Counted from the first letter of the stretch, positions 474-19,589 are shown. The stretch: DNA of 64,000 bases from Acidobacteriota bacterium (GCA_032127875.1 JAQBHI010000049.1:40150-104149), one strand, 5' to 3'. Program-made: numbers and translations. Notes: a model not told the origin generated them from the sequence alone.

Positions 474-590
474 CCAGATGCGACCATGCGGTCTCGGAAA
501 CTGCCGGTCCACAAGCCCCAGCTGCGGCGTGAACGGCAAGGAGCGAACGGCGAAAGCGGACAGATCACTCGTCAAAAAACAACGGTCAAA

Positions 591-1340: not shown

Positions 1341-2101
1341 AGCGTCTCCGGGATCAGCCGCTGACGCCGCACGAACGCGTACAGGCCGAGTGCGAACACC
1401 CCCACGCAGAACACCACCGTGAGCACGATGAAGCGCGTGGCCGGGAAGAAGCTGGCGGTCAGGAACCAGCGGATCAGAAAAAGACAGCGCGCGATGGGGT
1501 TCAGGTACAACACTTCAGCCATGGCGTCGGAGTGAACGGGATAGACGACCGGCGTCAACCAGAAAAGCGCCTGAAGAGCCGTGTGCCAAATGAGACCCGT
1601 GTCGCGAAAATCGACGTAGGCGAGGGCAACCAAGAAACCGATCCCCGCCGCCAGCAGGCCGAGGCACATGATCGGCAGGATCGCCAAGGGTGCGAGCGGC
1701 GACAACACGCCCCCGACCGCGAGGACCAGCACCAGCAGCAGGCTGTTGATGGCGAGGGTGATGAATGTGGAGAACATGCCCGAGGCGACCACCACTACGG
1801 CGGGCAGGGGCACCGCCTTCAGGATTCCCGTCTTGCGGGTGAGCGCATCGAGCCCCGAGAACGTGCAGTCCTGGAAGAACGTCCAGAACACGACCCCCAC
1901 GAGAACGTAGATCTCGAAGCCCCGACCGCCGATACCCAGGATCTTGCGGAAGACGGTGAGGTAAATCCCCAGCATCACCAGCGGGCTCAACAGGCCCCAG
2001 GCATAGCCCAGGGCCGAGTCGTTGTATTTGAGGCGGAAATCGCTGACCGCCACCTCGCGCACGATGTCGAGAAGGCGCGCGCGATCACGCCAGGGATGCA
2101 T
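1337..2101 (-). CDS. ABC-2 type transporter permease (Wzm/KpsM-like)
   Basis: Polytopic membrane protein with the typical ABC-2 N-terminus (VAVSDFRLKYNDSALGYAWGLLSPL). I place the start at the internal ATG 2099-2101, 13 nt after the upstream GT4 stop. The ORF-track start at 2356 is an antisense/alternate-frame extension. Confidence 0.8.
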   Translation of the reverse strand: MHPWRDRARLLDIVREVAVSDFRLKYNDSALGYAWGLLSPLVMLGIYLTVFRKILGIGGRGFEIYVLVGVVFWTFFQDCTFSGLDALTRKTGILKAVPLPAVVVVASGMFSTFITLAINSLLLVLVLAVGGVLSPLAPLAILPIMCLGLLAAGIGFLVALAYVDFRDTGLIWHTALQALFWLTPVVYPVHSDAMAEVLYLNPIARCLFLIRWFLTASFFPATRFIVLTVVFCVGVFALGLYAFVRRQRLIPETL

Positions 2102-3227
2102 ACAGGGACTCCATCGCGCGGGCGTACTGAGCGCGCGTGTATCGTACCGCCACGCGGCTGCGTCCGGCCGCTGCCAGCCGATCTCGTAACTCCCGGTCGC
2201 CGAGCAAACGCACGACCGCCTTCGCCAGCGAGGCCGGGTCGCCGGTCCGGAAATGAAGGCCGCTGCGCCCGTCTTCCACGATCTCGGCAGGCCCCCCGGA
2301 GTCCGACACGGCCACGGCGACGCCCGCAGCCATGGCTTCGACGACGACGAGTCCAAACGGCTCCCGGAGCGAGGGGCAGACCACCACGTCGCAGGCGGCC
2401 ATCACCGCGGCGATGTCCGGAACGAAGCCGGTGACGTGCACGCTCGCCTCGAGGCCGAGCTTCTGCCGCAGCCTCAGGACGCCGTCCCTGACCCGGCTCA
2501 CGTGGGGCAGCACGCCGGCATTCAGAGCCCCTCCAACGATCGCGAAGGCCACCTCGGGGAGGCTCGTCTGGATCTCGCGCGCTGCCAGGAGGAAGGTTGC
2601 GTGGCCCTTCATCGCGTCGAAGCGGGCGAACATCGCGACGAGCGGCACGGCCTCGGGGATGCCCAGGCGGAGCCGCACCGCGCGCGACCCCTCGCTGGGA
2701 GCGGCGGGATCGATCCCGACCGGGACCACCTGCGTGCGGGCGGTCAGCTCCGGTGCAAACGCCGCGATTTCGGCGCGCTGCGCCTCCGAGAAGGCAAGCA
2801 CCCGGGCCACAAGGCGGCGTGCCGCCATCCGCCACACAAAGCGTCGCGGCGCCTCGCCAAGATAGTTCACCTGGTAGACGAGCCTCGCTCCCGCGCGAGC
2901 AGCAGGAACGGCGAGCAGCAGCCCGAGCGGATCGGACACATGCAAGAGATGGACGCCTCGCTCCAGCACCAGCTTCCGGAGCCGAAGAGCGACCCGCGCG
3001 TGGCGAAGCCACACCCAGGGGGCCGCCAGGTGCCAAAGCGAGCGAGCCGAAAACCGGATCACGAGGGACTCGACGCCGGCCTCGCGCAAGCTGGCCACGA
3101 GCGGGCCATCGCTCGCGAGCACCACGAGAGGTCGAAACCGCGAGGTGTCGAGGCCGGCGAGCAGATGCAGCAGGGCGTTCTCGGCCCCGCCCAGTTCCGC
3201 GTACAGGTTCAGGTAGAGCACCGACAT
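2085..3227 (-). CDS. Glycosyltransferase family 4 (GT-B fold)
   Basis: N-terminus LYLNLYAELGGAENAL and C-terminal GT1/GT4 donor-binding region (EPFGLVVVEAMAAGVAV). Start taken at ATG 3227. Alternative upstream starts exist at 3257 and 3338. Confidence 0.8.
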   Translation of the reverse strand: MSVLYLNLYAELGGAENALLHLLAGLDTSRFRPLVVLASDGPLVASLREAGVESLVIRFSARSLWHLAAPWVWLRHARVALRLRKLVLERGVHLLHVSDPLGLLLAVPAARAGARLVYQVNYLGEAPRRFVWRMAARRLVARVLAFSEAQRAEIAAFAPELTARTQVVPVGIDPAAPSEGSRAVRLRLGIPEAVPLVAMFARFDAMKGHATFLLAAREIQTSLPEVAFAIVGGALNAGVLPHVSRVRDGVLRLRQKLGLEASVHVTGFVPDIAAVMAACDVVVCPSLREPFGLVVVEAMAAGVAVAVSDSGGPAEIVEDGRSGLHFRTGDPASLAKAVVRLLGDRELRDRLAAAGRSRVAVRYTRAQYARAMESLYASLA

Positions 3228-3288
3228 TGTTTCGCGGGGGCTCGCGCTCTCGTTCATCGGAGCATGCAGTCCGGGCACCCGCCCGAGT

Positions 3289-3987
3289 CTATACAGCCTC
3301 GGACGAGGCTGGCCACACCCGGCGGACGATACGCTCACGGTGGCCGGTCACCGCGACCGCGGCCACATAGCCTGGGCCGACAGGCAGGTCCGCTACTGCC
3401 AGACTCGTGATGCGCCGAAAGCCAGGGGGCCAGTCTTCGATCCCGACCTCGATCTTGTCCAGCCCATGCCCGATCCCCACGCCCAGCGCCTTCAGGCAGG
3501 CTTCCTTGCGGACCCAGCAGCGAAAGAAGGCTGTGGCCCGAGCTGTTTCTGGAAGGGCACGAAGCGCTTCCGCCTCTTTCGTGGCGAAGAAACGGTTGGC
3601 GATCGCCGTACTGTCACGGCCTGCGCAGACCCTCTCGATGTCCACTCCCGGCTCGTCGCGGCAGGTGAATGCGAGCAGGGCCCGGTCACCCGAGTGAGAG
3701 ACGTTGAAGCAAAGCTCGCCGGCGCCAGTCCTGTCCAGGACCGGCTTCCCGTGCGGCCCCTGCGCAAACAAAATGGACTGAGCCGAGGCTCCGAGGTAGC
3801 GGGCGAGAAGCGCGCGGAGCGCGCCGCGCACGACCACGAAGCGTCGGCGCGGTTCGTCGGACCGAAACGCCGCGGCTCGTTCCAGCTCGTCAACCGAGAG
3901 GCGAGCCGCGGCAGCTGCGGCGACATCGCCCAGGGCCACATCCCAGACGTGTACATCGCGTCCCTCGGGCCGGGCGAGGCCGCTCAC
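3289..3987 (-). CDS. 4'-phosphopantetheinyl transferase (Sfp-type)
   Basis: PPTase motifs (GKPVL, FNVSHSGD, WVRKEACLKALG). GTG start overlaps the stop of the NRPS-like gene (GTGA coupling). Confidence 0.75.
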   Translation of the reverse strand: MSGLARPEGRDVHVWDVALGDVAAAAAARLSVDELERAAAFRSDEPRRRFVVVRGALRALLARYLGASAQSILFAQGPHGKPVLDRTGAGELCFNVSHSGDRALLAFTCRDEPGVDIERVCAGRDSTAIANRFFATKEAEALRALPETARATAFFRCWVRKEACLKALGVGIGHGLDKIEVGIEDWPPGFRRITSLAVADLPVGPGYVAAVAVTGHRERIVRRVWPASSEAV

Positions 3988-6512
3988 GCGGAGGCTCCCA
4001 GGCCGGCGAGGAGAGCCTCGATCCGGGTGGCCACGGCGTCGACCGCTGGCTCCTGCAACAACTCCGCGTGGCCCGCGCCGATTCGTTCGACGCGGACGCC
4101 GCCTCGCGTCAGCCGGCGCAGCGCGTGCTCGGCCTCCTCAGCTGCCTCCGGTGGACCCTGGCCTGCAAGGAACAGCGCGAGACGAGCTTCGACGGGGCGG
4201 GGCCGGTAGCGGCGCAGCGCGCGCCGATTCGCTTGCATCAGGGGCGCTTCCACTGGCGAAATGGGCGGCCCTGGCTCGTTGCGGTGCAGCCGATTCGCGA
4301 GCGCGCTGAGAGCGACCCTGAGACGATCCTGCGGCCGGCGCCGGGCACCCAGGGGCAGCGGCGGTGGATCGAGCAGGACCAACAGGCTCACCTCCTGTCC
4401 GCCATGTTCGAGTTGGCGCGCCATCTCCAGAGCTACGGCGGACCCCATGCAGAATCCCCCCAGCAGATACGGCCCCAGTGGCTGGCGTCGCTGCAGGGCA
4501 CGGACGTAGTGAGCGGCGAGACCTGGCACGTCGGTGAGGGGCGGCTCAGCGCCGTCGAAGCCAGGCGCCTGCAGGCCGAAGAATGGCCGGCCCTCGAGTC
4601 GGCTGGCCAGTTTGGAAAGAAACATCACGCCCCCGCCCAGCCCGTGGACGAAGAAGAGAGGCTGGCCTGCGCCACGCGCCCGCAGTGGCACGAGCGGGCC
4701 CCACGCAGCACCTTCGGTCGTGCCGACGTGTTCGGCGAGCGCCCCGGCGCTGGGCGCGTCGAAGAGCACGCTGACCGGGAGGCTCACGCCGAGACGTTCG
4801 TGGAGCCTCGCCATCAGCTGCGCCGCCGCAACCGAGTCTCCTCCGAGCTCGAAGAAGTCGTCCTCTGCCGAGACACGCTGTACGCCAAGTACGTTCGCGA
4901 GCTGCTCGGCTATCGCCCGCTCCAACACCGACGCGGTTGAAGACGCGGCCGACTCGGGGCCCGCTTGCACGGCAGGGCGAGCGTCGCTCGTCAAGCCCAG
5001 CATCGCCGCGAGTCCGTTGCGCGGCACTTTACCCGAGGCATTCCGCGGCAGCGCGTCCCGGAAGACGATTTTCGACGGCACCTTGACCGCCGCAAGACGT
5101 GCCGCGACGAAGGCCCGCAAGGTCGCCGCCACGACGGCAGCACTCGGACGCAAGACCACGACGGCAGCCAGATCCTCCCCGAGGCGAGGATGGGCCACTC
5201 CGAAGGCGGCGGCTTCGGCCACGTCGGGGTGCGCAAGCAGCGCCTCGTCGACCTCGCCTGGCGAGATCTTCTCTCCACCGCGATTCACCTGCTCCTTGAG
5301 CCGGCCAGTGATCCAGAGGTCGCCATCGGCATCGAGCCGCCCAAGGTCCCCCGTCCGGAGCCAGTGCCCGAAAAAGGCTCCGCTCGTAGCTTCTGGATCC
5401 CCGTCGTAGCCGGCCATCACGCCCGGCCCCTCGACCACGATCTCGCCGACCAAGCCCGTCGGCAAAGGCCGGCCGGAGGCGTCGACGATCGCTAGCGAGG
5501 GCCCGACGGATCGGCCTACGCTACCGGGCTTGCGGCCCGCGTGCTTTTCGGTCACTGCGGTGACGAGCCCGGCCTCGGTGAGGGCGTAAGCCTCCAGGAC
5601 CGGCACGCCGAAAAGGGCCTCTACGCGTTCCTTTAGCGAGCTCGGCAGGGGGGCAGCTGCGGAGCGCACGAAACGCAGCGGCGCGCGATGGCGCAGCTCT
5701 TCGGGGTCGCCGGCACGATCCAGGATCGCCTGGTAAACGGCCGGTGAGGCGCCGAAATAGGTGGGCATCGCCTCTTGAAACCAGCGGCGGAAACGCTCGG
5801 CGGCGAAGCCCGGTGACACGAAGATGCTGCTTCCCGAAACGAGTGGGAACGCGAGAGTGTGGTAGAGAGCGGCCAGATGGAAGAGCGGCGAGACCGTGAA
5901 GCCCCTGTCGTCAGCCGTTAGCCCCCACACGCGGCAGGCGTCCCTGCCGGCTCCGCAGAACTGAGCATGCGTGATCCGCACGCGCCGCGGCTCACCGGCC
6001 GTGCCGGACGTGCACAACACGAAGGCGGCGTCGGCCGGCGACGCGGCCGACACCGCGGCGAGACCACCTGGATCACCTCGCCCATGCAGGTCGAAGAGAC
6101 CCGCAGGCCCGCTCGGGCGCGATTCGAGCTCGAGCACTTCAATCCCGAGCTCGCGCGCCGCCGCAGCCGCCGGCACGCTGCTGCGCTGGGGCACGGCGAT
6201 GGCACGGGCGCCCAGGCCGCTCAAGACCTGGCGGGCTTCGTGAAGCGGCAGCCCGATGGGAAGGGGCGCCGCGATGGCCACAGCGGTGACCGACAGAAGG
6301 GCTGTGACGGTCGCTGCCTCGTCCGGAAGCGCCAGCGCAATCCGGTCTTCTCGACCAAAGCCCCGCCCAGCCAGCAGGCCGGACACCCTCTCGACGTGAC
6401 CTGCCAGCTCGCCGTAGGTGAGAGGCGGTTGGCTCGGGGCCCTCAGGGCCTCGGCACGCGGCCGCTCGCGCGCGTGCTGCTCCAGAAGCCGAACGAGGGT
6501 GTTCCCGTACAT
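3984..6512 (-). CDS. NRPS-like tridomain protein: adenylation (AMP-binding) - peptidyl carrier protein - thioesterase
   Basis: A-domain cores LTYGEL, TSGTAGEPRRV, YALTE, LRTGDLGRLDADGDL, GRLKEQVNRGGEKISPGEVDEAL and PRNASGKVPR. PCP motif FFELGGDSV. Alpha/beta-hydrolase TE domain (FFVHGLGGGV ... LLGGFCMGSAVA ... GAGHAEL). 842 aa, ATG start at 6512. Confidence 0.85.
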   Translation of the reverse strand: MYGNTLVRLLEQHARERPRAEALRAPSQPPLTYGELAGHVERVSGLLAGRGFGREDRIALALPDEAATVTALLSVTAVAIAAPLPIGLPLHEARQVLSGLGARAIAVPQRSSVPAAAAARELGIEVLELESRPSGPAGLFDLHGRGDPGGLAAVSAASPADAAFVLCTSGTAGEPRRVRITHAQFCGAGRDACRVWGLTADDRGFTVSPLFHLAALYHTLAFPLVSGSSIFVSPGFAAERFRRWFQEAMPTYFGASPAVYQAILDRAGDPEELRHRAPLRFVRSAAAPLPSSLKERVEALFGVPVLEAYALTEAGLVTAVTEKHAGRKPGSVGRSVGPSLAIVDASGRPLPTGLVGEIVVEGPGVMAGYDGDPEATSGAFFGHWLRTGDLGRLDADGDLWITGRLKEQVNRGGEKISPGEVDEALLAHPDVAEAAAFGVAHPRLGEDLAAVVVLRPSAAVVAATLRAFVAARLAAVKVPSKIVFRDALPRNASGKVPRNGLAAMLGLTSDARPAVQAGPESAASSTASVLERAIAEQLANVLGVQRVSAEDDFFELGGDSVAAAQLMARLHERLGVSLPVSVLFDAPSAGALAEHVGTTEGAAWGPLVPLRARGAGQPLFFVHGLGGGVMFLSKLASRLEGRPFFGLQAPGFDGAEPPLTDVPGLAAHYVRALQRRQPLGPYLLGGFCMGSAVALEMARQLEHGGQEVSLLVLLDPPPLPLGARRRPQDRLRVALSALANRLHRNEPGPPISPVEAPLMQANRRALRRYRPRPVEARLALFLAGQGPPEAAEEAEHALRRLTRGGVRVERIGAGHAELLQEPAVDAVATRIEALLAGLGASA

Positions 6513-6590
6513 CCGCGTTCAGTCTACGCGGGCGGCGAGCGGCGGTGCAACGACCGCGCGGCTGAGCTGCCGCTACTAGAATGAGAGCGC

Positions 6591-8189
6591 GTGAGCCCGC
6601 TCCTTCGGCCCGAGCAACGACAGCATCTCGTCGCGCGCAGCTACCGCGTGCTCTCGGCTACGGTCGGTGGAGGGCCCGCACGGCGAATTGCCCGCCTGCA
6701 CCCGGCCCTCGACGAGGAAGCGGCCTATCAAGGCTGGCGCCGGGCGCAGAGGCAGGTCGCAATCGACTCCCCCACCCCGGCCCCGCCTCAGAATAGACCC
6801 CTCATCAGCGTCGTCATGCCGATCTTCGACGCGCCGGAGCGATTCCTGCGTGAGGCGATCGGGTCGCTGATCGAGCAGTCGTACCCGGAATGGGAGCTGT
6901 GTGCGGCCGACGGCGGCCCGGGCGGATCCGCTGGGAGCCGCGTCCTGCAGGAGTGGGCCCGGGTGGATCGTCGCGTCCGCGTCGTCGCGGTCGGCGAGAA
7001 CCGCGGCATCGCCGGCAACTCGAACGCGGCCCTTCGAATGGCACGCGGCGAGTTCGTCGCCCTGCTGGATCAGGACGACCTGCTGGAGCCCGACGCACTT
7101 CTGGCCCTGGTCGCGAGGCTCGACGAGGAACCGGGGCTCGACCTCCTCTACTCCGACACGGACAACGTGACGCCCTGGGGCGACCTCTACGCTCCCTTCT
7201 TCAAGCCAGACTGGTCCCCGGAACTACTCCTCTCCGCAAACTATCTCGCGCACCTGACTCTCGTGCGGCGCTCCGCGCTCGAGGCTGTCGGCAGCTTCGA
7301 CCAGAGCCTGGACGGCGCTCAGGACTGGGACCTGCTGCTGCGCGTCACCAAGAAGACCTCTCGGATTGCCCACGTGCCTCGGATCCTCTACCACTGGCGG
7401 TCGCTCCCGACCTCGTGCGCCTCGAGCCTGGATGCCAAACCCTATGCCCGCGAGGCGCAGCGGCGGGCGGTACAGGCTCACCTGGCAAGGGGCGGTCTCG
7501 CCGCCAGCGTGGAAGTCGCCGCGACCGGCCGGGTGCGGGTCGAACTACAGATGAAGGAACTGCCGAGCGTCACGCTCGTCCTGGCCAAGGGCGTCGCGCG
7601 CGCCCACGCCATGAGCTTCGCGGCCAGCGGCTTTCGCGGCCTCGACGTCGCCGAGCACGCGCGAGACGCGCGGGGCGAAGTGCTGGTGATCTGGGATCCC
7701 GGTTTCGAGCCCGACGACGAGGCCTGGGCCCGTGACCTCGCTGCCTGGGCGCTCGACCCCGAGATTGGCGCCGCAGGGGGGCTGGCGGTGGACAAGGACG
7801 GCCGCGTGGATTCCATCGGCTACGTGGCGAACGAGGGTATCGCCACGCCCGTTTTCGCCGGTGCTCAGGCCGATGCATGGACGCCCCTGGGTAGAGCGGA
7901 CTGGTACCGCAACCTGCTGGCGCCGTCGCCGCGCGCGTTTGCCACACGGCGGGAGATCTGCGAGCGCCTGGGCAGCCTGGAGGCATCACCGCAAGGGATC
8001 CTGGACTATGGAGTGAGATTGCGACGCGCCGGGCTGCGCACCATGGTCGTGCCGACGGCCCGGCTGGTTCGCTGTGGGCCGGCGAGCGCGTTGCCTGCGG
8101 TGCGCGGGGACTCCCTCGCGGGAACCGACCCTTGCTTCAACCCCAACCTCGCGCCGTCGTCGACGCTGCCTCGCCCTCGCGAAGACTAG
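6591..8189 (+). CDS. Glycosyltransferase family 2 (GT-A) with long C-terminal extension
   Basis: GT2 core ISVVMPIFDAPERFLREAIGSLIEQSY ... LDQDDLLEPDAL (DXD). GTG start. Divergent from the NRPS-like gene. Confidence 0.75.
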   Translation: MSPLLRPEQRQHLVARSYRVLSATVGGGPARRIARLHPALDEEAAYQGWRRAQRQVAIDSPTPAPPQNRPLISVVMPIFDAPERFLREAIGSLIEQSYPEWELCAADGGPGGSAGSRVLQEWARVDRRVRVVAVGENRGIAGNSNAALRMARGEFVALLDQDDLLEPDALLALVARLDEEPGLDLLYSDTDNVTPWGDLYAPFFKPDWSPELLLSANYLAHLTLVRRSALEAVGSFDQSLDGAQDWDLLLRVTKKTSRIAHVPRILYHWRSLPTSCASSLDAKPYAREAQRRAVQAHLARGGLAASVEVAATGRVRVELQMKELPSVTLVLAKGVARAHAMSFAASGFRGLDVAEHARDARGEVLVIWDPGFEPDDEAWARDLAAWALDPEIGAAGGLAVDKDGRVDSIGYVANEGIATPVFAGAQADAWTPLGRADWYRNLLAPSPRAFATRREICERLGSLEASPQGILDYGVRLRRAGLRTMVVPTARLVRCGPASALPAVRGDSLAGTDPCFNPNLAPSSTLPRPRED

Positions 8190-9196
8190 GCAATCACCGG
8201 CGGCAGGTCGCCGATCGGCAGTCCCGCCAACTCGCGCAGCGCGCGCGCCACCTCGATGCGGACCATGCGCTTGCGCCAGGCGTACACGAGGTCCGCGTTG
8301 TCGAGGGGCTTCGCTGGCTTGTAGGCAATGCCGGCAGCCATCTCGATCGCTTCGGCGTCGAGAATGCGGCCTTGCAGGAAGCTCTCGGCCCCCGTCGCCT
8401 CGACGGGATGGGTGTGCACAGCGCCGAGAACGATGCGCGATTCTTCCACGACGCTGCCCGGCCCCAGCCTGACTGCGGCGGCGACACCGACGATCGGGAA
8501 ATCGATCGAGCCGCGACGCCGGAGCTTGCGATAGGTCGCCTTCCAGCCGGCGCAGTCCGGCACGTGAATCTGCGTCAGGATTTCCTCGGGTCGCTTGGTG
8601 AGGTAGTGGATGCCGTCCGGGCCGTAGAGCGCGCTCACGGGAATGCGGCGCTCGCCGCTGGTACCGACCAGAGTCACTTCGGCGCCGAGCGTGATCATCA
8701 CCGGCGCCGTGTCGGAGGACGAAAGCGCCCAGCAGATCGACGAGCCCGGGGCAACCAGGCAGATGTCGCCATCCTTCTTCATGCAATAGCCGATCGAGGC
8801 GCGCCAGAACTCAGACTGGTTGTAGTAGTTGCAGCGCGTGTCGACGCACAGGTTGCCGCCGATGGTGCCGGCGTTGCGCAGCGGCGGCGAAGAAACCAGG
8901 CCTGCCGAGCGTGCGATCGACGGCCAGCGGCTTCGGATCGCCGGATGCTCCGCGACGGCCGTGAGCGTCGCCAGCGCCCCCAGCTGGAGGCCGCCGTTGG
9001 CGTGGATCGCGCCCGCGCCCTCGAGTTTGCGAACACTGACGAGAAGCTTTGGCGTGAACTGCTTCCGCTTCATGTTCGGGTAGAGATCGGTGCCGCCCGC
9101 AACGACCATCGCATCGGGACCGTGGTCGGCCAGGATCTGCGCTGCCTCGCGCGCCGTCTTCGGGGCGACGAAGCGAAACGCCGGCAGTCTCATCAT
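8186..9196 (-). CDS. Molybdenum hydroxylase FAD-binding medium subunit with Cys-rich insertion (HcrB/CoxM-like)
   Basis: FAD_binding_5 N-terminus (MMRLPAFRFVAPKT ... VVAGGTDLY) and CO_deh_flav_C region. Insertion CVDTRCNYYNQSEFWRASIGYCMKKDGDICLVAPGSSIC. The ATGATG start at 9191-9196 overlaps the large-subunit stop. Confidence 0.8.
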   Translation of the reverse strand: MMRLPAFRFVAPKTAREAAQILADHGPDAMVVAGGTDLYPNMKRKQFTPKLLVSVRKLEGAGAIHANGGLQLGALATLTAVAEHPAIRSRWPSIARSAGLVSSPPLRNAGTIGGNLCVDTRCNYYNQSEFWRASIGYCMKKDGDICLVAPGSSICWALSSSDTAPVMITLGAEVTLVGTSGERRIPVSALYGPDGIHYLTKRPEEILTQIHVPDCAGWKATYRKLRRRGSIDFPIVGVAAAVRLGPGSVVEESRIVLGAVHTHPVEATGAESFLQGRILDAEAIEMAAGIAYKPAKPLDNADLVYAWRKRMVRIEVARALRELAGLPIGDLPPVIA

Positions 9197-11679
9197 CGGC
9201 GCGCCCCCTGGCCGGAGAATTCGGGAGCGACCGAGCTGGCGCCGCGATGACCCTCGGGGACAGGCGCGGTGGCCGGATCGAGAGCCTCTACCGCGACGCT
9301 TTCCGGGTATTCGAAGCGCGGCAGCTGCGGGGCGCGATAGCGGCCCTCGAGCGCGGCCACGATTTTCTCCGGTGTGATGGGCACCTCGTCCACGCGCGCG
9401 CCGAGCGCTTCGTAGATCGCGTTCGCCACGGCGGGGATCACCGGAAGCAGCGGCCCCTGGCCACACTCCTTGGCGCCATACGGCCCTTCCGGATCCAGGG
9501 TCTCGACCAGGATCGAGTCGACCGGCGGCATCTCGAGCGTGGTGGGGCTCTTGTAGTCGAGCATCGACGGGATCTTGTGCAGGCCCTTGCGAAAGACCTG
9601 CTCTTCCATCAGCGCCTCGCCAAGCGCCATGTAGACGGAGCCCTCGATCTGGCCCAGCACCAGCATCGGGTTCAGGGACCGGCCGATGTCGTGCGCGATC
9701 CACACCTTGTCCACGCGGACGATGCCGGTCTCTTTGTCGGCCGAGAGCTCCACGGCCGCGGCGGAGTAGGAATATGTCGGCGTCGGGCCCACACCCGAGC
9801 CCTTCCATTTCGCGACGCTCCTGGGCGCCTTGTACGAGCCCACGGACCCGAGCGTGCCGTGCGCGGACTCGGCGAGCACGACGGCCTCCGCGAAACAGAG
9901 CGAGCGGCCTGGGTCGGCGGCGTCGAAGATGCGGCGTCCGCTCGCCCGCAGGCGGCCGACGGAAAGCTCGAGCTTGCTCGCTGCGGCCTCGAAGATCAGC
10001 TTACGCAGCTTGCGCGCGGCCTGGATCGCCGCGTTGCCGGTCATCAGCGTGACGCGCGACGAGTAGGAACCGAGGTCCACGGGCGTCAGGTCGGTGTCGG
10101 CGGTCACGACGCGAATGTCCTCGAACCCGATGCCAAGCTCCTCGGCCACGATGTAGGCGAGGATCGAATCGGAGCCCTGGCCGATGTCCGTCGAACCGCA
10201 GAACACCGTGACGCCGCCGCCGCGATCCACTTTGATCTGCACGCCCGACTGCGGCATGGCGTTCCAGTAGATCGGCAGGCCAGCGCCCGTCAGGTACGCG
10301 GACGCCGCGATCGCGAGGCCCCTGCCGGGCCCGAGCTTACCGTGCTTCTCTCGATAGCCGCTCTTCTCGATGACTCGCTCCAAACAGGCCTTGAGCCCGA
10401 TCGTGCGCACGTACATGTGGTTGGCAGTGACCGTGTACGGCTCGAGGCAGTTGTCGATCCGCCACTGCGCCGGCTCGAGGCCCAGATCCTCACAGAACTT
10501 GTCGATGTGGCATTCGAGAGCAAAGCGTGGCTGAGGCGTTCCGTGGCCACGCTTGGGTCCGCAGGGCGGCTTGTTGGTGAAGACGCGGACGCCCTCGAAG
10601 CGATAGCGCGGGATCCTGTAGGTCACCGTCTGCAGCGCGCCGGTGTAGTAGAGACTCGCGACGCCATAACTGCCATACGCGCCGCCGTCGAGGGCCGTCT
10701 TGAAGTGCATCGCCGTGATCGTGCCGTCCTTCTTGAGGCCGGTCCTCACCCACATCTTCACGGGATGGCGTCCGCGATGGCAGTAGAAGACCTCCTCTCG
10801 CGTCAGCGTCAGTTTCACCGGCCGGCCCGTCTTCATCGAGAGCTTGCAGGCCACGATCTCGTGGCCGAACGGGTCGCTCTTGCCGCCAAAGCCGCCGCCG
10901 TTCGGGCAAGCAATCACGCGCAGCTGCGAGGGCGGCAGCTCGAGCACCTTGGCCGCCGCGCGGTGCACGTAGTGCGGCGTCTGGGTCGAGGACCACAGCG
11001 TCAGCTTCCCGTCCGCGCCCGCCGCGGCGACGCACGCGTGCTGCTCCATCGGCAAATGCGTGTTGCCCTCGAAGTAGAAGTTGTCCTCGCGAACGTGCTC
11101 GGCCTCGGCAAAGCCCGCTTCGACGTTGCCGAAGTCGAAAGACACCTCCTTGTGGACGTTGCCGCGCGGGCCGTACTCGTGGATCCGCGCCTCCCGAATT
11201 TGAGGGGATGCGGCTTCCAAGGCCCCCCCGCCGGCTAACGCCTCATCAATAGACATGAACGCCGGCAGCAGCTCGTACTCGACTTCGATCAGCCCGCAGG
11301 CGGCCTCGGCGGTCTCCTCGTCGATCGCCGCGACCGCCGCGACCGGATCCCCGACGAAGCGGACCTTGTCGATGCACAGCGCGTGCTCGTCCTGGCTGAC
11401 CGGCAGGATGCCGAAGGGAATCGGCAGCTCGCTGCCCACGAGCGTTGCGAGGACGCCATTCAGCGCTGCGGCCCTCGAGACGTCGACGCGCTTGATCCTG
11501 GCATGGGGATGGGGGGAGCGCAGCAGCTTCGCGAAGGTCATGCGCGGCAGCACCAGGTCGTCGGCGAACACGGTCTGGCCGGTGACCTTAGCCGCGGCGT
11601 CGACCTTGAGCAGCGACCGGCCGATCACGCTCAGCGGCTCGCCCGCCTCGCCGGGCGTGGGAATTCGCGGATCAGCCAC
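9193..11679 (-). CDS. Molybdenum hydroxylase molybdopterin-binding large subunit (xanthine dehydrogenase / aldehyde oxidase family)
   Basis: Ald_Xan_dh_C-type N-terminus (IGRSLLKVDAAAKVTGQ), GGGFGGK motif, about 830 aa. Most plausible start is GTG at 11677-11679, which overlaps the small-subunit stop. The ORF-track ATG is at 11742. Confidence 0.85.
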   Translation of the reverse strand: MADPRIPTPGEAGEPLSVIGRSLLKVDAAAKVTGQTVFADDLVLPRMTFAKLLRSPHPHARIKRVDVSRAAALNGVLATLVGSELPIPFGILPVSQDEHALCIDKVRFVGDPVAAVAAIDEETAEAACGLIEVEYELLPAFMSIDEALAGGGALEAASPQIREARIHEYGPRGNVHKEVSFDFGNVEAGFAEAEHVREDNFYFEGNTHLPMEQHACVAAAGADGKLTLWSSTQTPHYVHRAAAKVLELPPSQLRVIACPNGGGFGGKSDPFGHEIVACKLSMKTGRPVKLTLTREEVFYCHRGRHPVKMWVRTGLKKDGTITAMHFKTALDGGAYGSYGVASLYYTGALQTVTYRIPRYRFEGVRVFTNKPPCGPKRGHGTPQPRFALECHIDKFCEDLGLEPAQWRIDNCLEPYTVTANHMYVRTIGLKACLERVIEKSGYREKHGKLGPGRGLAIAASAYLTGAGLPIYWNAMPQSGVQIKVDRGGGVTVFCGSTDIGQGSDSILAYIVAEELGIGFEDIRVVTADTDLTPVDLGSYSSRVTLMTGNAAIQAARKLRKLIFEAAASKLELSVGRLRASGRRIFDAADPGRSLCFAEAVVLAESAHGTLGSVGSYKAPRSVAKWKGSGVGPTPTYSYSAAAVELSADKETGIVRVDKVWIAHDIGRSLNPMLVLGQIEGSVYMALGEALMEEQVFRKGLHKIPSMLDYKSPTTLEMPPVDSILVETLDPEGPYGAKECGQGPLLPVIPAVANAIYEALGARVDEVPITPEKIVAALEGRYRAPQLPRFEYPESVAVEALDPATAPVPEGHRGASSVAPEFSGQGARR

Positions 11680-12207
11680 GGCTGACGCCGTCTTCGAGCC
11701 CGACCGTCTCCAGCGCCACCGGCAAGGGCGGATCCTCGCCACGCATCCGCGCCGCAGCCAACTCGACCGCCTCGAAGATCTTCAGATACCCGGTACAGCG
11801 ACACAGGTTCCCGGCCAGCGCTTCGGCGATCTCGGCACGATCGGCTTCAGGCTTCTTGCGGAGCAGCGCCTCGGCCGTGAGCAGAAAGCCCGGCGTGCAA
11901 TAGCCGCACTGCGCCGCGCCCAGGTCCGCGAACGCCTGCTGCAAAGGGTGCAGGGTCGCGCCATCGGCCATCGCTTCGACCGTGCGGATCTCGTGACCCT
12001 CGCACTCCACCGGCAGGCTCAGGCAGGACAGGATCGGCTTGCCGTCGACGAGCACCGTGCACGTGCCGCACTCCCCAAGCTCACAGCCGTGCTTCGTGCC
12101 CATCAGACCCAGCTCTTCGCGAATCACCTCGAGCAGGGTGTGGTGCACCGGCGCCAAGCACTCCCGCTCTTCGCCGTTGACCCTCAGCCGGATCCGCTGT
12201 TTCTCCA
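11672..12207 (-). CDS. [2Fe-2S] iron-sulfur small subunit of molybdenum hydroxylase (HcrC/CoxS-like)
   Basis: Plant-ferredoxin-type CELGECGTCTV and second cluster motif QCGYCTPG ... CRCTGY. GTG start at 12205-12207, preceded by GGAG 8 nt upstream. Confidence 0.8.
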
Positions 12208-12222
12208 CCTCAACCGCTCCTG

Positions 12223-13854
12223 ATGCTGCCTTTGAACGCCCGGTCAAACCCGGATTATAGCGCCCGGCACGAGCCCAGCAAACCGCTATACTGCCCGGCC
12301 TTGGTTCCCCGCGAGGCCGACCGCCGCCAGACCGCCCTCGTCGTGGCGTTGGGGATCGCCCTCTGGGCTCCCCGCCTGGTCCTGCAGTTCGCGCCACCGG
12401 CGCCCTACGACGAGGGCAACACGGTGGTGGCGGCCTGGCGCGTACTCGAGGGGGAGCGGCTGTATCGCGACGTCTGGCAGATGCACCCTCCGGGAACGGC
12501 CTGGAGCCTGGCCTTGGCATTCCGCCTGCTGGGAACGACGCTCTTCACCGAGCGCCTGGTCAAGGCCGCCCTCGCGGGCATCGCTCTCGGCCTGCTCCAC
12601 CGCTTCGCGCGGCGGATGGCGGGGCCGTGGCTCGCGGCGAGCGCGGTCGTCGCGGGAGCGCTGCTTCCGCCGGCAACCCCGTTCCTGCGTCCCAACGATC
12701 CGGCGTTCGTCGCGAGCCTTGCGGCCAGCGCGCTGGTGCTGGCGCGGGACCGCCTAGGTCGCTGGGGATCGCCGGCGATCGGAGCGCTCCTGGGCCTGAC
12801 CGCGGCCTATCGGCTGGACTTCGGCGCCGGTTCCGCGCTGGCGATCGCGGCGTTCCTGGTAGCGCGGGGCGAGGCGCGCCGTCTTCTCGCCGTGATCCCG
12901 GGCGCCGCCATTGCGCCCGCGGCCGGCGCTGCGGCACTCCTGCTCCAGGGAGTGGCCGGCTCTGCGTGGGAACAGATGTTCGTGTTTCCAGCTACGGCCT
13001 ACCCCGCTCAGCGCGGCATGCCGCTGTACGACCCTGCTGTGGTCCTGCTGCCCCTGGCGCTGTGCGGCGCGGCGCTCCTCGCAGCCTGGGCCGGGAGGCG
13101 CCACGATCGCGTCCGCCACGAGGCGCTGCTCCTGACGGGCTGCCTGGGACTGGGCTACCTCGGGTACGCGCTGGTGCGCCCTGACTTGGAGCATACGCTC
13201 CCGGCGCGGGTGCTGGGCCTGCTGGCCGGGACCGGGCTTGTGTCGGCAGCAAAGGGTATCGTTCCGGTCACCTCGCGCCGGCTGCTCCAGGCCGTGGCCG
13301 TGGCCGCGTCCTGCGGCGTCGTCGCGCCGGCGCTGCCGACGCTCGTGGAGACCGCGCGGCTGGGACTGATGCTGCTCCGGCCGGTAGCCCGGGAGCCGCA
13401 GTGGGCGAGAGCGGGCCCGCTGCTCCGCGTCGACACCGACGCGGCGGCAATGGCCCGACTTGTCGCCGAGCGCACCCGTCCGGGCGAGCGGATCTTCGTG
13501 GGCAACGAGCGCCACGATCGCATCCTTGTCAACCACGTGCTCCTCTACTTCCTCGCAGATCGGCCGTCGGTGACGCGCTACTACAACCTCCACCCCGGTC
13601 TAGCCACCCGCGCCGACATCCAGGAGGAGATCGTCGAGGCCATCGAACGGCAGGCTGTCCGGATCGTCGTGCTCTGGAGCGCTCCGCTTTGGGACGAACC
13701 CAACGCAACCGCGCGGCCGGCCGCCGGTACGCTCGACGCGGCTCTCCGCTCCCACTTCGAAGCGCGGGAGACGCGAGGCCGCTACACGCTCTGGGAGCGC
13801 TCGTCTGCCGGACCCGGCGCTGTCAACACCAGGACGGCCAGCGGCGCCAGATGA
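12223..13854 (+). CDS. Polytopic membrane protein, putative GT-C-type glycosyltransferase (start uncertain)
   Basis: 543-aa ORF with 10 or more hydrophobic helices and a DEG motif after the first helix. Antisense frames are fragmented R/P-rich junk. The listed start lies only 16 nt from the divergent hydroxylase gene, so the true start may be downstream. Confidence 0.5.
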   Translation: MLPLNARSNPDYSARHEPSKPLYCPALVPREADRRQTALVVALGIALWAPRLVLQFAPPAPYDEGNTVVAAWRVLEGERLYRDVWQMHPPGTAWSLALAFRLLGTTLFTERLVKAALAGIALGLLHRFARRMAGPWLAASAVVAGALLPPATPFLRPNDPAFVASLAASALVLARDRLGRWGSPAIGALLGLTAAYRLDFGAGSALAIAAFLVARGEARRLLAVIPGAAIAPAAGAAALLLQGVAGSAWEQMFVFPATAYPAQRGMPLYDPAVVLLPLALCGAALLAAWAGRRHDRVRHEALLLTGCLGLGYLGYALVRPDLEHTLPARVLGLLAGTGLVSAAKGIVPVTSRRLLQAVAVAASCGVVAPALPTLVETARLGLMLLRPVAREPQWARAGPLLRVDTDAAAMARLVAERTRPGERIFVGNERHDRILVNHVLLYFLADRPSVTRYYNLHPGLATRADIQEEIVEAIERQAVRIVVLWSAPLWDEPNATARPAAGTLDAALRSHFEARETRGRYTLWERSSAGPGAVNTRTASGAR

Positions 13855-15101
13855 ATCAGCACGCGTTCGAAGGAGAGCAGCACCTGGAGGACGCCCTTCC
13901 AGGGCGAGGCGACGTAGATCAGGAAGACGACCGCCAGGTACGCCGGCGGCACGAGGCGCCGGTCGCTGATCGGACCGCAACGTGCGCGCTGCCTGAGGGC
14001 CCACAACCCGGCCATCCCCCACCAGAACAGGCCGGAGCGCTGGGGGTGCAGCAGCGCGATCCGCAGCATCTCCGCCAGGACCATGGGGGCGCGGGGCGCC
14101 CCAGTGGCGAGCGCGTCGGGCGTGAGCCGCGTGAGATAGCGCTCGTCGAAGCCCGGGGGCAGCGTCGCCCGGACCAGCAGCCAGGGGACGACGACGGCAG
14201 CGCACACGGCGAACATCGTGAGGGCCGGCCGCAGCCGACGACGCGACGCGCTGCCCTGGATCCAGGCCGACACGGCGAGCAGCAGGCCGAGGACGATGCC
14301 CTCGTTCTTCGAGAGGACAGCGCCCGCGGCCAGCAGGCCCGCGAGCGGCACGGCGCCAGCCTCGAGGGCGAGGGCCGAGCCCGCGACGTACGAGGCCAGC
14401 ATCGTGTCGGCCACGCCCGCGTCCGCTCCACCCTCCTCGGAGAAGAGCAAGGTGGGCATGAGCAGCACCGCCAGGGCCAGCCCCCGCCCTGTCCGCGAGT
14501 CGCGCCGCGGCAGTTCCGCGAGCAGTAGGGCGCCCAGCGCCAGGTAGAACAGCAGGGGCACCGCGCGCATCACTGGCTCCGACGGCGGGCCGAACGCCGC
14601 TGCCGTCGCCTCCAGCGTCGGCAGCAGGGGCGGGTACTGCGGATGCGGCAGCGGGAAGCCGAGGTCGCGGTGTTCCGGGCTCGGGTAGCTCGAGGCCGCG
14701 TGGATCACCCGCGCGTGGAGCCACCACAGCGTCCGGCCGTCCACGGAGGCCATCGGGACCGTGGCGACGTTGCGCACCATCGCTGCGACCATGAGCAGCC
14801 AGACGAGCAGGCCGATGCGCTCGATCAGCGTCCAACCAGGGACGGCTTCCCGCGGACGCTCGCGCAGCCGCCACAGCCAGTGCAGCCCCAGCGGCGCGCC
14901 CAGGCCCAACAGCAGCACGCTCGCGTGGCGCATCGGCACGCCGACTTGCGACGCGGCGAGCAGCAGCACGGCGACGCCGAGTCCACCCAGCAGGAACGCC
15001 GCCGCGACTCGAGCCGTCCGCGGGACGGGCCAGGCGCTTCGCCTGAGGAACTGCCCCCCCACGCCAAGGCAGGCCGCGACCAGCAGCAGGAGGCCACTCA
15101 T
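13782..15101 (-). CDS. Polytopic membrane protein, ArnT/PMT-like GT-C glycosyltransferase candidate
   Basis: ATG at 15101, preceded by the stop of the upstream gene (ATGA overlap). About 12 predicted TM helices. The upstream 230 aa of the ORF-track ORF are an R/G-rich alternate frame of the neighbouring gene. Confidence 0.55.
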   Translation of the reverse strand: MSGLLLLVAACLGVGGQFLRRSAWPVPRTARVAAAFLLGGLGVAVLLLAASQVGVPMRHASVLLLGLGAPLGLHWLWRLRERPREAVPGWTLIERIGLLVWLLMVAAMVRNVATVPMASVDGRTLWWLHARVIHAASSYPSPEHRDLGFPLPHPQYPPLLPTLEATAAAFGPPSEPVMRAVPLLFYLALGALLLAELPRRDSRTGRGLALAVLLMPTLLFSEEGGADAGVADTMLASYVAGSALALEAGAVPLAGLLAAGAVLSKNEGIVLGLLLAVSAWIQGSASRRRLRPALTMFAVCAAVVVPWLLVRATLPPGFDERYLTRLTPDALATGAPRAPMVLAEMLRIALLHPQRSGLFWWGMAGLWALRQRARCGPISDRRLVPPAYLAVVFLIYVASPWKGVLQVLLSFERVLIHLAPLAVLVLTAPGPADERSQSV

Positions 15102-15823
15102 GGCGACCCGAATGGGCGCGGTGCAAAAGCTCCGCGCTCGCAGGAGAGCTGCAGCCAGCGCACGTCCGGCCGCGACGCCGCGAGCAGCGCCGCGGCCGCC
15201 GCAGAGCAGCGCGGGGCGTGCGCGACGTAGACCCGCCGGGGGAACAGGTAGGACGCAGCGAACCCGTCCGCGAAGTCGAAGAAGCGTCCCGTCCGCAGGA
15301 CCAGCAGGGCGCCGGCGTCGCCCGAGCTGCGCTGGAAAGCCTCGATTGCCCGGTAGTCCGGCTCCGAGCTGTGCCGGCCGTAAACGTGCAGACGCCGCTC
15401 CGCGAAACCCAGTCCCGCCAGCTCGGCCTCGCGAAGGCCGTCGCGCACCAGCCGCACCGGCGCGAGGGCGATCGAATACAGGAGGAGCAGCGCAACCAGC
15501 CGCCGGCGCCAGGTCTCGCTGGCGGACTCGTCGTCGCGTTGGCCGGTGACGGCCCGAGCCAGGAACACGCCGCGTGCCGAGGCCAGCGCCCATGCGCCGG
15601 TGGCCACGACCGCCGCCGGGCCGCAGAGGGAGTGCAGGATCCGAGTCTGCACCGCCAGCTCGGCCCGAAACACCGCGCCGTGGATGGGGAGGCGCAGGTA
15701 GAGCCACTGGATCACCGCAACGAACGCGTCTGGCGACAGCAGCGCCGCGCCGAAGAACGGCGCCGCGAACGCCACCAGCCAGGCGTTCGCGAGCCAAGGG
15801 CTGCGCTCGCAGCGGCCGGTCAT
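15098..15823 (-). CDS. Integral membrane protein, hypothetical
   Basis: 241 aa and hydrophobic. Translationally coupled on both sides (ATGA overlaps at 15820-15823 and 15098-15101). Confidence 0.5.
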   Translation of the reverse strand: MTGRCERSPWLANAWLVAFAAPFFGAALLSPDAFVAVIQWLYLRLPIHGAVFRAELAVQTRILHSLCGPAAVVATGAWALASARGVFLARAVTGQRDDESASETWRRRLVALLLLYSIALAPVRLVRDGLREAELAGLGFAERRLHVYGRHSSEPDYRAIEAFQRSSGDAGALLVLRTGRFFDFADGFAASYLFPRRVYVAHAPRCSAAAAALLAASRPDVRWLQLSCERGAFAPRPFGSP

Positions 15824-17034
15824 GGCAGGAGCCGCCGGCTGAGCAGGGACGCGGCGACGAACTCGCCGGTCACGCGGTGGCCGCGGGCGTTCCAGTGGAT
15901 GCCGCTCGAGAAGTACGCTCCGCCGAGCAAGCCCCGATCGGCAGCGCGCAGGGCGACACTGGGATCGATCAGCGGCAGATCCGCCTTGGCCGCAATGGAG
16001 ACCAGACGCCGGCGCACCGAGGCGGGGTCGGCATCAGCGTCGGACCATCCGTAGCGTTGGCAGGCGATGCGCCAGTTGCGGTCCGCGACCTCTACGCGGT
16101 CCGGCACGTAAACGACGGCGAAACGGGCGCCATCGGCGACGACCTCGTCGCGCATCAGGGCCAGCAGACGCGCGGTGCGCTCCCACGCTTCCTCCACGAA
16201 CTGCGGCGGCCGCCGCTCGAACACCCGCCGCTCGTCAGGCGGCGCGTGCTTCCGAAGCGGCGGCCCGGCGCCCAGGCGCGAGAGCAGGCCGTGGACCCAC
16301 GGGGCGCCCTCCCCCAGCCGGGAACGCGCGAAGGCGCGCAGGTCCGACGCCGCCCCTTCGTCGTTGCCGATGTCCGGCGGGGCCCTGATCGCCACTCTGG
16401 GCACGGGCACGCCGCGCAGGACCAGGGCGCCCGCTTCCGCGACGAAGTAAGGCTTGCGACCGCGCCAGTAGTTGTCGCGTGCGTTGTGCACGACGTCATT
16501 GCCAAAGAAGAAGAGCAGCACGAGACCCGGGTGCAGCGAGCGGCCCAGCGTCCGATACAGCAGCAGCTCCTGGTCCGAGGCGTAGCCGGCCACGCCGCCA
16601 TTCACAACCTCGGCGCGTCGGCCCGCCCGCAGCAACTGCTCCTCGAGCACGCGGGCTACGCCGAGGGGTTCTGGAATGGCCCACCCCTCCACGAACGAGT
16701 CGCCCAGCGCGAGGACGCGGAGCGTGCCGGGAGCCGGCCGCTCGGTACGATCGCGGTCCCGGAGGCCAGCGGCGTTGATCGCGATATCGGCGTCGCCCTC
16801 GGGGAAGCCGACCCGCTCCCGGACACCGGGACGATGAGACCAGCCGAGCAGCGCGTCGTGCCGAAAGTAGGCCGACAGCGGCGCGCCTCGGTGATTGAGG
16901 TGATAGCGGATCCGCAGGGCGACATCGACCACGAGCAGCGCGACCAGGACGCTGACGAAGGCGAGCGCGAGCTCCGCGCGCCCGACCCGTCGCGAGCGTT
17001 CAGCGATGGCCGAGGGCCCGCCTGAGGCCGGCAT
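15820..17034 (-). CDS. SGNH/GDSL-family hydrolase with N-terminal membrane anchor
   Basis: N-terminal TM helix, then GDS block LALGDSFVEG and GND block LFFFGNDVV. Glycan O-acyl esterase / acyltransferase-like. Confidence 0.65.
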   Translation of the reverse strand: MPASGGPSAIAERSRRVGRAELALAFVSVLVALLVVDVALRIRYHLNHRGAPLSAYFRHDALLGWSHRPGVRERVGFPEGDADIAINAAGLRDRDRTERPAPGTLRVLALGDSFVEGWAIPEPLGVARVLEEQLLRAGRRAEVVNGGVAGYASDQELLLYRTLGRSLHPGLVLLFFFGNDVVHNARDNYWRGRKPYFVAEAGALVLRGVPVPRVAIRAPPDIGNDEGAASDLRAFARSRLGEGAPWVHGLLSRLGAGPPLRKHAPPDERRVFERRPPQFVEEAWERTARLLALMRDEVVADGARFAVVYVPDRVEVADRNWRIACQRYGWSDADADPASVRRRLVSIAAKADLPLIDPSVALRAADRGLLGGAYFSSGIHWNARGHRVTGEFVAASLLSRRLLP

Positions 17035-17890: not shown

Positions 17891-17938
17891 GACGCGGGCT
17901 CGATCCGACCGGCGAGGAAACGGGCGCCGGCGGCGGGG

Positions 17939-18409: not shown

Positions 18410-18479
18410 GACTCACCTCCGCCGAAAGACCTGGCCAGGATTCTAGTCCGAACGGCGAGGCTTTTTTTCTGGGAGAAGG

Positions 18480-18680: not shown

Positions 18681-18689
18681 ACGCCAAAA

Positions 18690-18717: not shown

Positions 18718-18764
18718 GTCGGCCCCGAACCGAAGGTGCGTGCGGGTGCTAGAATCGGCGCATC

Positions 18765-19055: not shown

Positions 19056-19062
19056 GCGGAGA

Positions 19063-19584: not shown

Positions 19585-19589
19585 ACTCG

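Follow-up and report, generated by a model that had tools for sequence, protein, structure and literature searches.

An operon for a molybdenum enzyme of the 4-hydroxybenzoyl-CoA reductase superclade with glutamine at the position of the catalytic glutamate in an Acidobacteriota genome

The 4-hydroxybenzoyl-CoA reductase (Hcr) of Thauera aromatica, HcrCAB (1RM6/1SB3), belongs to the xanthine oxidase family of molybdenum enzymes, and to our knowledge every studied member of this family uses a catalytic glutamate. This residue (E1261 in the bovine enzyme) is a general base that takes the proton from Mo-OH, and its exchange for Ala in the Desulfovibrio gigas aldehyde oxidoreductase kills the activity (PMC3624778). 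Here we describe a related operon on a stretch of 64,000 nucleotides from an Acidobacteriota bacterium (GCA_032127875.1 JAQBHI010000049.1:40150-104149), referred to as the window, in which positions are counted from the first letter. The operon encodes a 2Fe-2S small subunit (S), a molybdopterin-binding large subunit (L) and an FAD-binding medium subunit (M), and L has a Gln at the position of the catalytic glutamate. The architecture is ordinary; what is notable is that the Glu has been lost throughout a whole clade, and that this clade is likely to be misannotated.

All three genes lie on the minus strand. S (12208–11672, 178 aa) has the Pfam domains Fer2 and Fer2_2, L (11679–9193, 828 aa) has Ald_Xan_dh_C, MoCoBD_1 and MoCoBD_2, and M (9196–8186, 336 aa) has FAD_binding_5 and CO_deh_flav_C, which completes the domain set of the xanthine oxidase family (a large, a 2×[2Fe-2S] and an FAD_binding_5 subunit). 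The start codon of S is a GTG with AGGAG 6–7 nt upstream. L starts with a GTG inside the last codons of S, giving an 8-nt overlap at GTGGCTGA, and L and M overlap by the 4 nt ATGA. S, L and M are three co-directional, translationally coupled genes. An earlier reading of the DNA alone (the original prediction) had described three overlapping genes for 2Fe-2S, molybdopterin and FAD subunits in an hcrCAB-like order at 8186–12207. Gene calls and Pfam bear out the genes, and the order is S-L-M; the end at 8186 is correct, but S begins at 12208, so that 12207 is one base short. No promoters or terminators were found in a scan of both strands from 7900 to 12600, which is uninformative at 68% G+C.

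S contains two [2Fe-2S] motifs, C42-x4-C47-x2-C50-x11-C62 and C101-x2-C104-x31-C136-x-C138, and no signal peptide or N-terminal leader, as Fer2 begins at residue 9 according to Pfam. The molybdenum cofactor-binding motif GGGFGGK, which had been reported for the large subunit, is found at L residues 261–267 (10879–10899, minus strand), and L also retains STQ (231), GRHP (303) and RGHG (377). The C-terminus of L runs ≈45 aa past the end of HcrA. Judged by sequence, the S-L-M product is a heterotrimeric xanthine oxidase family enzyme of the Hcr superclade, probably arranged as a dimer of trimers.

For all three subunits the best NCBIfam and PDB matches are the Hcr subunits. The scores against the curated NCBIfam equivalog models nevertheless stay below the cut-offs for S (178.5 bits with TIGR03193, Hcr gamma; cut-off 257.8), L (830.8 bits with TIGR03194, Hcr alpha; cut-off 994.55) and M (273.8 bits with TIGR03195, Hcr beta; cut-off 404.55). 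Identity is 42% between L and HcrA (619 bits with 1RM6_A) and 39% between M and HcrB. Homologs of L were sought among 1.84 billion cluster representatives, and trees were built by neighbor-joining only, with bootstrap. L groups with HcrA in the Hcr superclade (96–100% bootstrap), apart from carbon monoxide dehydrogenase (CODH), xanthine dehydrogenase (XDH) and the nicotinate types. Enzymes of the GAKG-x-GE type, the XDH-like and CODH-like ones included, fall well outside the superclade. HcrA and the cluster representative P0140 form one branch (100% bootstrap), and the window L sits in the other branch (84%), where it belongs to a monophyletic clade of its own (100%). Among 10 representatives only P0140 passes the TIGR03194 cut-off (1301.7 bits).

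A CODH could be rejected, as L lacks a CODH active-site loop and the tree places it elsewhere. Neither the form I loop VAYRCSFR, which was to be checked according to the original prediction, nor the form II loop AYRGAGR is present in L. CoxL structures match L with 240–262 bits against 619 for HcrA. Clustering of L with CODH form II or with nicotinate/isoquinoline hydroxylases, named beforehand as speaking against an Hcr-like enzyme, was not observed in the trees. The PaoC model NF041671 gave 248.7 bits (cut-off 1180). From these comparisons the window enzyme is neither CODH, XDH nor Pao-type. The Hcr-like identity proposed earlier is right by descent, but Hcr proper is unsupported given the scores below cut-off and the separate Gln clade. 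Among six features of Hcr proper, the window enzyme has the three-subunit gamma-alpha-beta order and, at the sequence level, the four-Cys insertion in beta; it lacks the equivalog scores, the place in the HcrA clade, the active-site Glu and, as far as the 64-kb window and the 80 clade loci go, the anaerobic gene context of bcr/bam, ferredoxin, KGOR and 4-hydroxybenzoate-CoA ligase. Orthology with Hcr is not shown by the sequences. No structure, curated family model or study of any clade member was found.

The glutamine is Gln741 of L (codon CAG, 9457–9459, minus strand), which lies in the segment GAKE-C-G-Q-G where other members of the family have the catalytic glutamate. E726 of HcrA and E743 of QorL fall in the same column, which was assigned from a gapless alignment around GAKE-x-G-[E/Q]-G and, for QorL E743, by residue count. 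Glu is likewise the residue of this column in 6-hydroxypseudooxynicotine dehydrogenase, CoxL and nicotinate dehydrogenase. Gln is found in 113 of 120 close homologs (the motif was undetected in 5) and in all but one of the 81 clade loci where a regular expression located the site; the expression misfired or returned nothing in two others. When 122 clade members were compared with 16 other Hcr-superclade sequences, nine columns differed systematically, and the 741 column is the sole one that is 100% Q in the clade and 100% E in the 16 others.

Gln at this position also occurs in a second lineage (P0125/L004), whose identity to the window L is 48%. As this lineage joins the clade in only 11% of the bootstraps, the Glu-to-Gln exchange looks independent, and a single origin shared by both was rejected as unsupported. 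In about 15 of 136 family representatives related to L the Glu is replaced (by Q, D, S, M, N, R, I or L), and therefore several uncharacterized xanthine oxidase family lineages have lost the catalytic base. By this count the loss of the catalytic Glu is unusual but not unique. The L004 locus (ENA ERZ27237009 k141_330702, 9505–22301) contains Hcr-like genes followed by an aconitase-like large/small pair, and further genes for a PaaK-type CoA ligase, an HMGL-like lyase and several 2-oxoacid:ferredoxin oxidoreductases. This gene set looks like an anaerobe-style catabolic cluster.

M contains a Cys-rich insertion of 39 residues (117–155; 8732–8848, minus strand). The peptide quoted in the original prediction is present, but the x17, x8 and x9 of its spacing were miscounted, and on the sequence the loop reads C-x4-C-x15-C-x7-C-x8-C. 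M aligns with HcrB (1RM6_B, 210 bits) in one stretch without gaps across the loop, where 22 of the 39 residues are identical. C122, C138, C146, and C155 of M align onto C122, C138, C146, and C155 of HcrB, which we take to be the ligands of its [4Fe-4S] cluster, and the four M residues are predicted to be [4Fe-4S] ligands as well. They are conserved in 77 of 77 orthologs. The first Cys of the motif (C117) is retained in just 25 of these, with Leu in Blastocatellia, and to judge from the alignment it is dispensable for the loop.

The FAD subunits of CODH, quinoline oxidoreductase and the Sulfolobus type align with M only on either side of the loop (≈5–117 and 160–320), so the loop is a true insertion relative to these proteins. 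An insertion with four Cys but a different sequence is also present at this site in 5Y6Q_B, the FAD subunit of the Methylobacillus aldehyde oxidase. As this enzyme is oxidative, the earlier view of the Cys insertion as a mark of the reductive direction is not supported. Escherichia coli PaoB (5G5G_B) aligns with M in a single stretch across the loop site. PaoB reportedly binds a [4Fe-4S] cluster there, although no statement to this effect was found in the literature searched.

In the homolog search with L each of the 8000 candidates scored was a significant match, and those listed, 120 in number, show 78–92% identity, with few named taxa, all Vicinamibacteria. At JGI close homologs carry the label Hcr alpha (hundreds to thousands of genes), and at NCBI they are called "molybdopterin cofactor-binding domain-containing protein." When each GTDB species was scanned with one genome, 543 stretches that encode a relative were obtained; taxonomy, identities and gene contexts rest on the 80 of these that were listed. 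The 80 are chiefly Acidobacteriota (Vicinamibacteria, Blastocatellia/Pyrinomonadaceae and "Marinacidobacterales") with few Methylomirabilota and Verrucomicrobiia. Identity to the window L is highest in an unclassified Acidobacteriota metagenome-assembled genome (MAG; L009, 92%), followed by the Vicinamibacteria loci (76–82%), "Marinacidobacterales" (70%), single Methylomirabilota and Verrucomicrobiia MAGs (67–70%) and Blastocatellia/Pyrinomonadaceae (63–68%). Complete Vicinamibacteria chromosomes with the operon include OY970399.1 and CBDFGD010000002.1. Those members of the host classes that have been cultured are aerobes.

Genes were called and clustered in 85 loci. Around 30–40 loci of Pyrinomonadaceae/Blastocatellia share the order panB, panC, S, L, M, mocA-like, redoxin, RidA, enoyl-CoA hydratase (ECH), acyl-CoA dehydrogenase (ACAD), FAD monooxygenase and a convergent gene of the old yellow enzyme (OYE) family. 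The ECH is of the PRK08258 type (above cut-off), and the FAD monooxygenase matches the N-terminal half of the salicylyl-CoA 5-hydroxylase model NF006101 with 482 bits. In Pyrinomonadaceae the mocA neighbor suggests a pterin that carries cytosine. Two other loci (L023 and L024) contain genes for TetR, ECH, a BoxB/PaaA-like diiron protein and a benzoate-CoA ligase ahead of S-L-M, and a second benzoate-CoA ligase and a CoA-transferase behind it. In L080 a gene of the benzoate-CoA ligase family and the start of S have 4 nt in common. The Verrucomicrobiia locus L042 has S-L-M, an HTH/cupin regulator, BoxC (937 bits, cut-off 712), BoxB (854, cut-off 499), RidA and benzoate-CoA ligase (685, cut-off 375), with a CoA-transferase pair upstream. 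In L027, L030, L034, and L036 from Blastocatellia a co-directional Fe/Mn superoxide dismutase (SOD) gene lies directly upstream of S, preceded by an aa3 cytochrome oxidase operon with the order SCO1-COX2-COX1-COX3-COX4; an example of this arrangement is L030, 3226–9202.

The nearest outgroup of the clade is L005 (Ignavibacteriales), which has kept the Glu and is sister with 60% bootstrap. It sits beside four BcrABCD-type genes in an anaerobic benzoyl-CoA cluster of the benzoyl-CoA reductase (Bcr) type. No bcr, bam or KGOR genes were found in the 64-kb window or in the 80 clade loci, and the partner genes of the relatives are O2-dependent or typical of aerobes, so the earlier suggestion of a possibly anaerobic metabolism finds no support. 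The broader part of that suggestion, CoA-dependent metabolism of aromatic acids, is a reasonable field because relatives in other phyla are operonic with genes of the benzoate-CoA ligase family.

In many Pyrinomonadaceae loci (L032–L083) one to several unrelated small genes lie between L and M, so that the coupling is broken (e.g., L054, 12455–13015; L045, 13043–14005; L032, 11932–12210). The inserted genes include those of a BrnT-like toxin, a retropepsin-like protein and a polysaccharide deacetylase, and the L/M junction of this family looks like a recurrent insertion hot spot.

Homologs of the partner genes are also found in the window, 22–31 kb from the operon. On the plus strand there are genes for RidA (34472–34864), MarR (≈34.9–35.3 kb), a PRK08258-type ECH (35301–36101), an ACAD (36110–37228) and an OYE-family flavoenzyme (38331–39797), all candidate partners whose link to the operon is inferred. 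The RidA, ECH, ACAD and OYE proteins are 47–59% identical to those of the Pyrinomonadaceae block. The region 37225–38300 has overlapping open reading frames in three frames and no family match. A protein of the benzoate-CoA ligase family (43702–45390, plus strand; TIGR02262, 538.6 bits, cut-off 375.25) might be the activating enzyme. It shares 48% identity with the two ligases around S-L-M in L023, and an ortholog with 62% identity is encoded 9 kb from S-L-M in L077. In the window its gene is isolated among unrelated genes. No BoxB/BoxC or FAD monooxygenase homologs were found in the window with tblastn. Since the window holds the RidA/ECH/ACAD/OYE orthologs and a ligase, the earlier mention of acyl-CoA genes elsewhere in the window has some substance, but these genes are 22–31 kb off.

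The AMP-binding protein near the operon is encoded in a glycan/lipid biosynthesis-export cluster (3–8189) that ends next to it. The cluster contains a partial methyltransferase gene and genes for an ABC ATPase, an ABC-2 permease, a GT4 glycosyltransferase, a 4′-phosphopantetheinyl transferase (PPTase, 3289–3987), a stand-alone adenylation-PCP-thioesterase (A-PCP-TE) protein (3984–6512) and a GT2 glycosyltransferase (6591–8189). The supposed aryl-CoA ligase is this A-PCP-TE protein, a carrier-protein loading module encoded beside a PPTase in a glycosyltransferase/ABC-2 cluster, and so not an aryl-CoA ligase. Such a lone non-ribosomal peptide synthetase-like loading module suggests an acylated glycan or glycolipid. 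The cluster recurs in the closest relatives, L002 and L009.

The operon is convergent with the GT2 gene ending at 8189 and divergent from a gene for a PMT_2-like membrane protein starting at 12223, and the flanks also include genes for an SGNH hydrolase and an epimerase. As they comprise glycosyltransferases, an ABC-2 exporter, a PPTase and the A-PCP-TE module, the immediate flanks were rejected as functional evidence. Elsewhere in the window there are two full-length paralogs of H+-translocating pyrophosphatase (21130–23172 and 23983–26154, minus strand) with only a gene for a DedA/VTT-domain membrane protein (23202–23900) between them.

Taken together, we give about an even chance to a variant of Hcr, present in aerobic soil bacteria, that acts on aryl-CoA, may well work reductively and feeds O2-dependent CoA pathways. 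That the enzyme acts on an aromatic acyl-CoA is the likelier part, and we hold it to be somewhat more probable than not because benzoate-CoA ligases recur as neighbors and the clade descends from Bcr-associated relatives. Its use under oxic or micro-oxic conditions is suggested by the neighboring BoxB/BoxC, the BoxB-like oxygenase, the FAD monooxygenase, the aa3 oxidase and the SOD, together with the aerobic life of cultured hosts; BoxB and the FAD monooxygenase require O2. The absent general base speaks against a conventional hydroxylase and thereby favors reductive removal, although we would put the reductive direction at slightly less than an even chance. 4-Hydroxybenzoyl-CoA as the specific substrate is a tentative proposal and rather doubtful.

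Such an enzyme would have a molybdenum-pterin cofactor in L, two [2Fe-2S] clusters in S, and FAD and the extra [4Fe-4S] cluster in M. As in the Thauera Hcr, electrons could pass from a low-potential donor to the [4Fe-4S] cluster, the FAD and then the molybdenum. The substrate would be a substituted aromatic acyl-CoA, which might lose a ring substituent reductively, as with the hydroxyl group at position 4 of 4-hydroxybenzoyl-CoA. Benzoyl-CoA, or a thioester related to it, would then go to an oxygen-dependent attack on the ring of the CoA thioester and not to a benzoyl-CoA reductase. The receiving pathway could be a Box-type epoxidase or a route like the aminobenzoyl/salicylyl-CoA monooxygenase-reductase (ACMR). 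The gene structure, the cofactor motifs, the place in the clade, the Gln in place of Glu and the gene neighborhoods are direct observations; which cofactors are bound, that the substrate is a CoA ester, which way the reaction runs and that the genes 22–31 kb away belong with the operon are inferred.

Several points weigh against this proposal. We know of no mechanistic precedent for the Glu loss in Hcr, which retains the Glu, and the reaction could therefore differ in kind; nor are we aware that any enzyme of the clade has been studied. S-L-M stands alone both in the window and in four further contigs of Vicinamibacteria, where no CoA ligase was found within 10 kb of the operon, and an electron donor gene (ferredoxin) was not found beside it. 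In Pyrinomonadaceae the upstream genes panB, panC, and folK are conserved equally, so that the gene order could be plain lineage synteny. The "Marinacidobacterales" loci give no informative neighbors, and adjacency to a ligase or to Box genes is seen in 3–4 independent lineages only. The contigs of the representatives P0121 and P0271 add little, as their coverage downstream of L is limited. The literature searched gave no useful link between Hcr and the Box pathway or furoyl-CoA dehydrogenase.

An ordinary HcrCAB ortholog is what the original prediction pointed to and what the JGI/KEGG-style annotation assumes, in which homologs are named Hcr alpha; it would be fed by ferredoxin and serve an anaerobic benzoyl-CoA pathway. 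It would fit the top matches of all three subunits, the shared gene order and the conserved [4Fe-4S] loop. The sister lineage L005 sits in its Bcr-type cluster although it scores below the cut-off of TIGR03194 (933 bits), and therefore this cut-off alone is not decisive. We still consider such an ortholog improbable, as none of the three subunits reaches its equivalog cut-off, that of TIGR03194 being passed only by P0140 of the HcrA cluster, and L, with its 42% identity to HcrA, is in a separate clade with 100% support. E726 is replaced by Gln, bcr, bam and KGOR are absent from the window and the 80 clade loci, and the relatives' partner genes are O2-dependent. The cultured host classes are generally aerobic, and aa3 oxidase and SOD genes are found at clade loci. 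An oxidative molybdenum hydroxylase or dehydrogenase would suit the aerobic hosts; here the substrate would be an aryl- or heteroaryl-CoA, an aldehyde or an N-heterocycle, and the [4Fe-4S] cluster would pass electrons out to an acceptor, as it does in PaoABC. Hydroxylases make up most of the family, with furoyl-CoA dehydrogenase as an example of heteroaryl-CoA hydroxylation, and adjacency to CoA ligases suits a CoA-ester hydroxylase equally. It also agrees with the four Cys inserted at this site in 5Y6Q_B, which is from an oxidative enzyme, and reportedly in PaoB. The general-base Glu needed for the Mo-OH attack is, however, missing clade-wide, L is nested within the Hcr superclade, and the loop is Hcr-type rather than Pao-type, so we regard an oxidative enzyme as unlikely.

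The role in Vicinamibacteria could also be unrelated to aromatic CoA esters, for instance a housekeeping or detoxifying redox reaction. In five Vicinamibacteria contigs the operon stands alone in conserved housekeeping synteny, with H+-PPase, DUF2911, ferritin, a PD40 protein and citrate synthase as anchors and variable genes (glycosyltransferase, sigma factor, kinase) between them. The identity of ≈80% across the close homologs listed is as for a core function, and in some lineages a SOD or redoxin gene adjoins the operon. Against this, the clade is monophyletic and has diverged systematically from other Hcr-type proteins at just 9 sites, and the window L is 64–70% identical to members operonic with benzoate-CoA ligases. 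As the window itself holds a benzoate-CoA ligase gene and the RidA-ECH-ACAD-OYE orthologs, we give such an unrelated role little credence.

If the enzyme is an aryl-CoA-acting Hcr variant, the whole clade might represent an unrecognized type of oxygen-compatible molybdenum enzyme that dehydroxylates or de-substitutes aryl-CoA, is independent of the Glu, occurs in hundreds of soil Acidobacteriota species and feeds Box/ACMR-like routes. This wider generalization is speculative and may well be wrong. If true, lignin-derived 4-hydroxybenzoate and amino- or hydroxybenzoates would be funneled via benzoyl-CoA into aerobic Box or ACMR-like pathways, and working without the family's catalytic glutamate would imply a modified catalytic mechanism at the molybdenum. 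A link to the Box pathway would also mean a new entry of phenolic acids into aerobic CoA-dependent degradation of aromatics. A large conserved clade with the complete cofactor wire of Hcr but without the catalytic Glu is a natural experiment, which bears on how molybdenum hydroxylases work in reverse.

The organisms concerned rank among the most abundant soil bacteria. Because the Gln clade has oxygen-dependent aromatic-CoA neighbors in relatives, the label of an anaerobic 4-hydroxybenzoyl-CoA reductase that automatic annotation gives it is probably misleading. Such Hcr calls have been used to infer the potential for a benzoyl-CoA pathway in Vicinamibacteria (bioRxiv 10.1101/2025.11.25.690425). 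This anaerobic reading is doubtful, as the clade falls short of the features that define Hcr and is tied to aerobic genes, and an abundant soil gene family is thus likely being misread as a marker of anaerobic degradation of aromatics.

Among known systems, PaoABC (5G5G) and the Methylobacillus aldehyde oxidase (5Y6Q) are xanthine oxidase family heterotrimers as well. They differ from the window enzyme in the sequence and length of the loop (20.9 bits in a loop-only search against 78.9 for HcrB), they are oxidative and have kept the catalytic Glu, and their large subunits match L with ≈175 bits where HcrA reaches 619. PaoA has a Tat signal and the pao genes have the order S-M-L, unlike the leaderless S and the order S-L-M in the window. 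The urolithin C dehydroxylase UcdCFO from Enterocloster is a xanthine dehydrogenase family heterotrimer that reductively dehydroxylates a phenolic substrate and whose FAD subunit is without the [4Fe-4S] loop (PMC11760930). Compared by description only, it also differs from the proposed enzyme in its non-CoA substrate and its strictly anaerobic gut host.

The Ignavibacteriales protein of L005 (MBS4028821.1) is closer, with 55% identity to L, the same four-Cys loop in the FAD subunit and a TIGR03194 score that is likewise below cut-off. Unlike L it has the Glu, and its 2Fe-2S domain is fused to the molybdenum subunit. Its cluster contains two HGD-D, two BcrAD_BadFG, a Had-like protein, ADH, ACAD, a 2-oxoacid:ferredoxin oxidoreductase and mocA. 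HcrCAB of T. aromatica shares with the window operon the subunit order (2Fe-2S, Mo, FAD), the Pfam architecture, the superclade and, in HcrB, a loop of equal length with the same four Cys. It differs in the sequence of its alpha and beta subunits (42 and 39% identity), in the Glu726 that is Gln in the window L, and in lacking the C-terminal tail of ≈45 residues. The window clade is without the bcr, ferredoxin and KGOR context, and its members are instead linked to O2-dependent aryl-CoA enzymes. Finally, HcrCAB is found in denitrifiers, phototrophs and fermenters, whereas the hosts of the window clade are aerobic soil Acidobacteriota.

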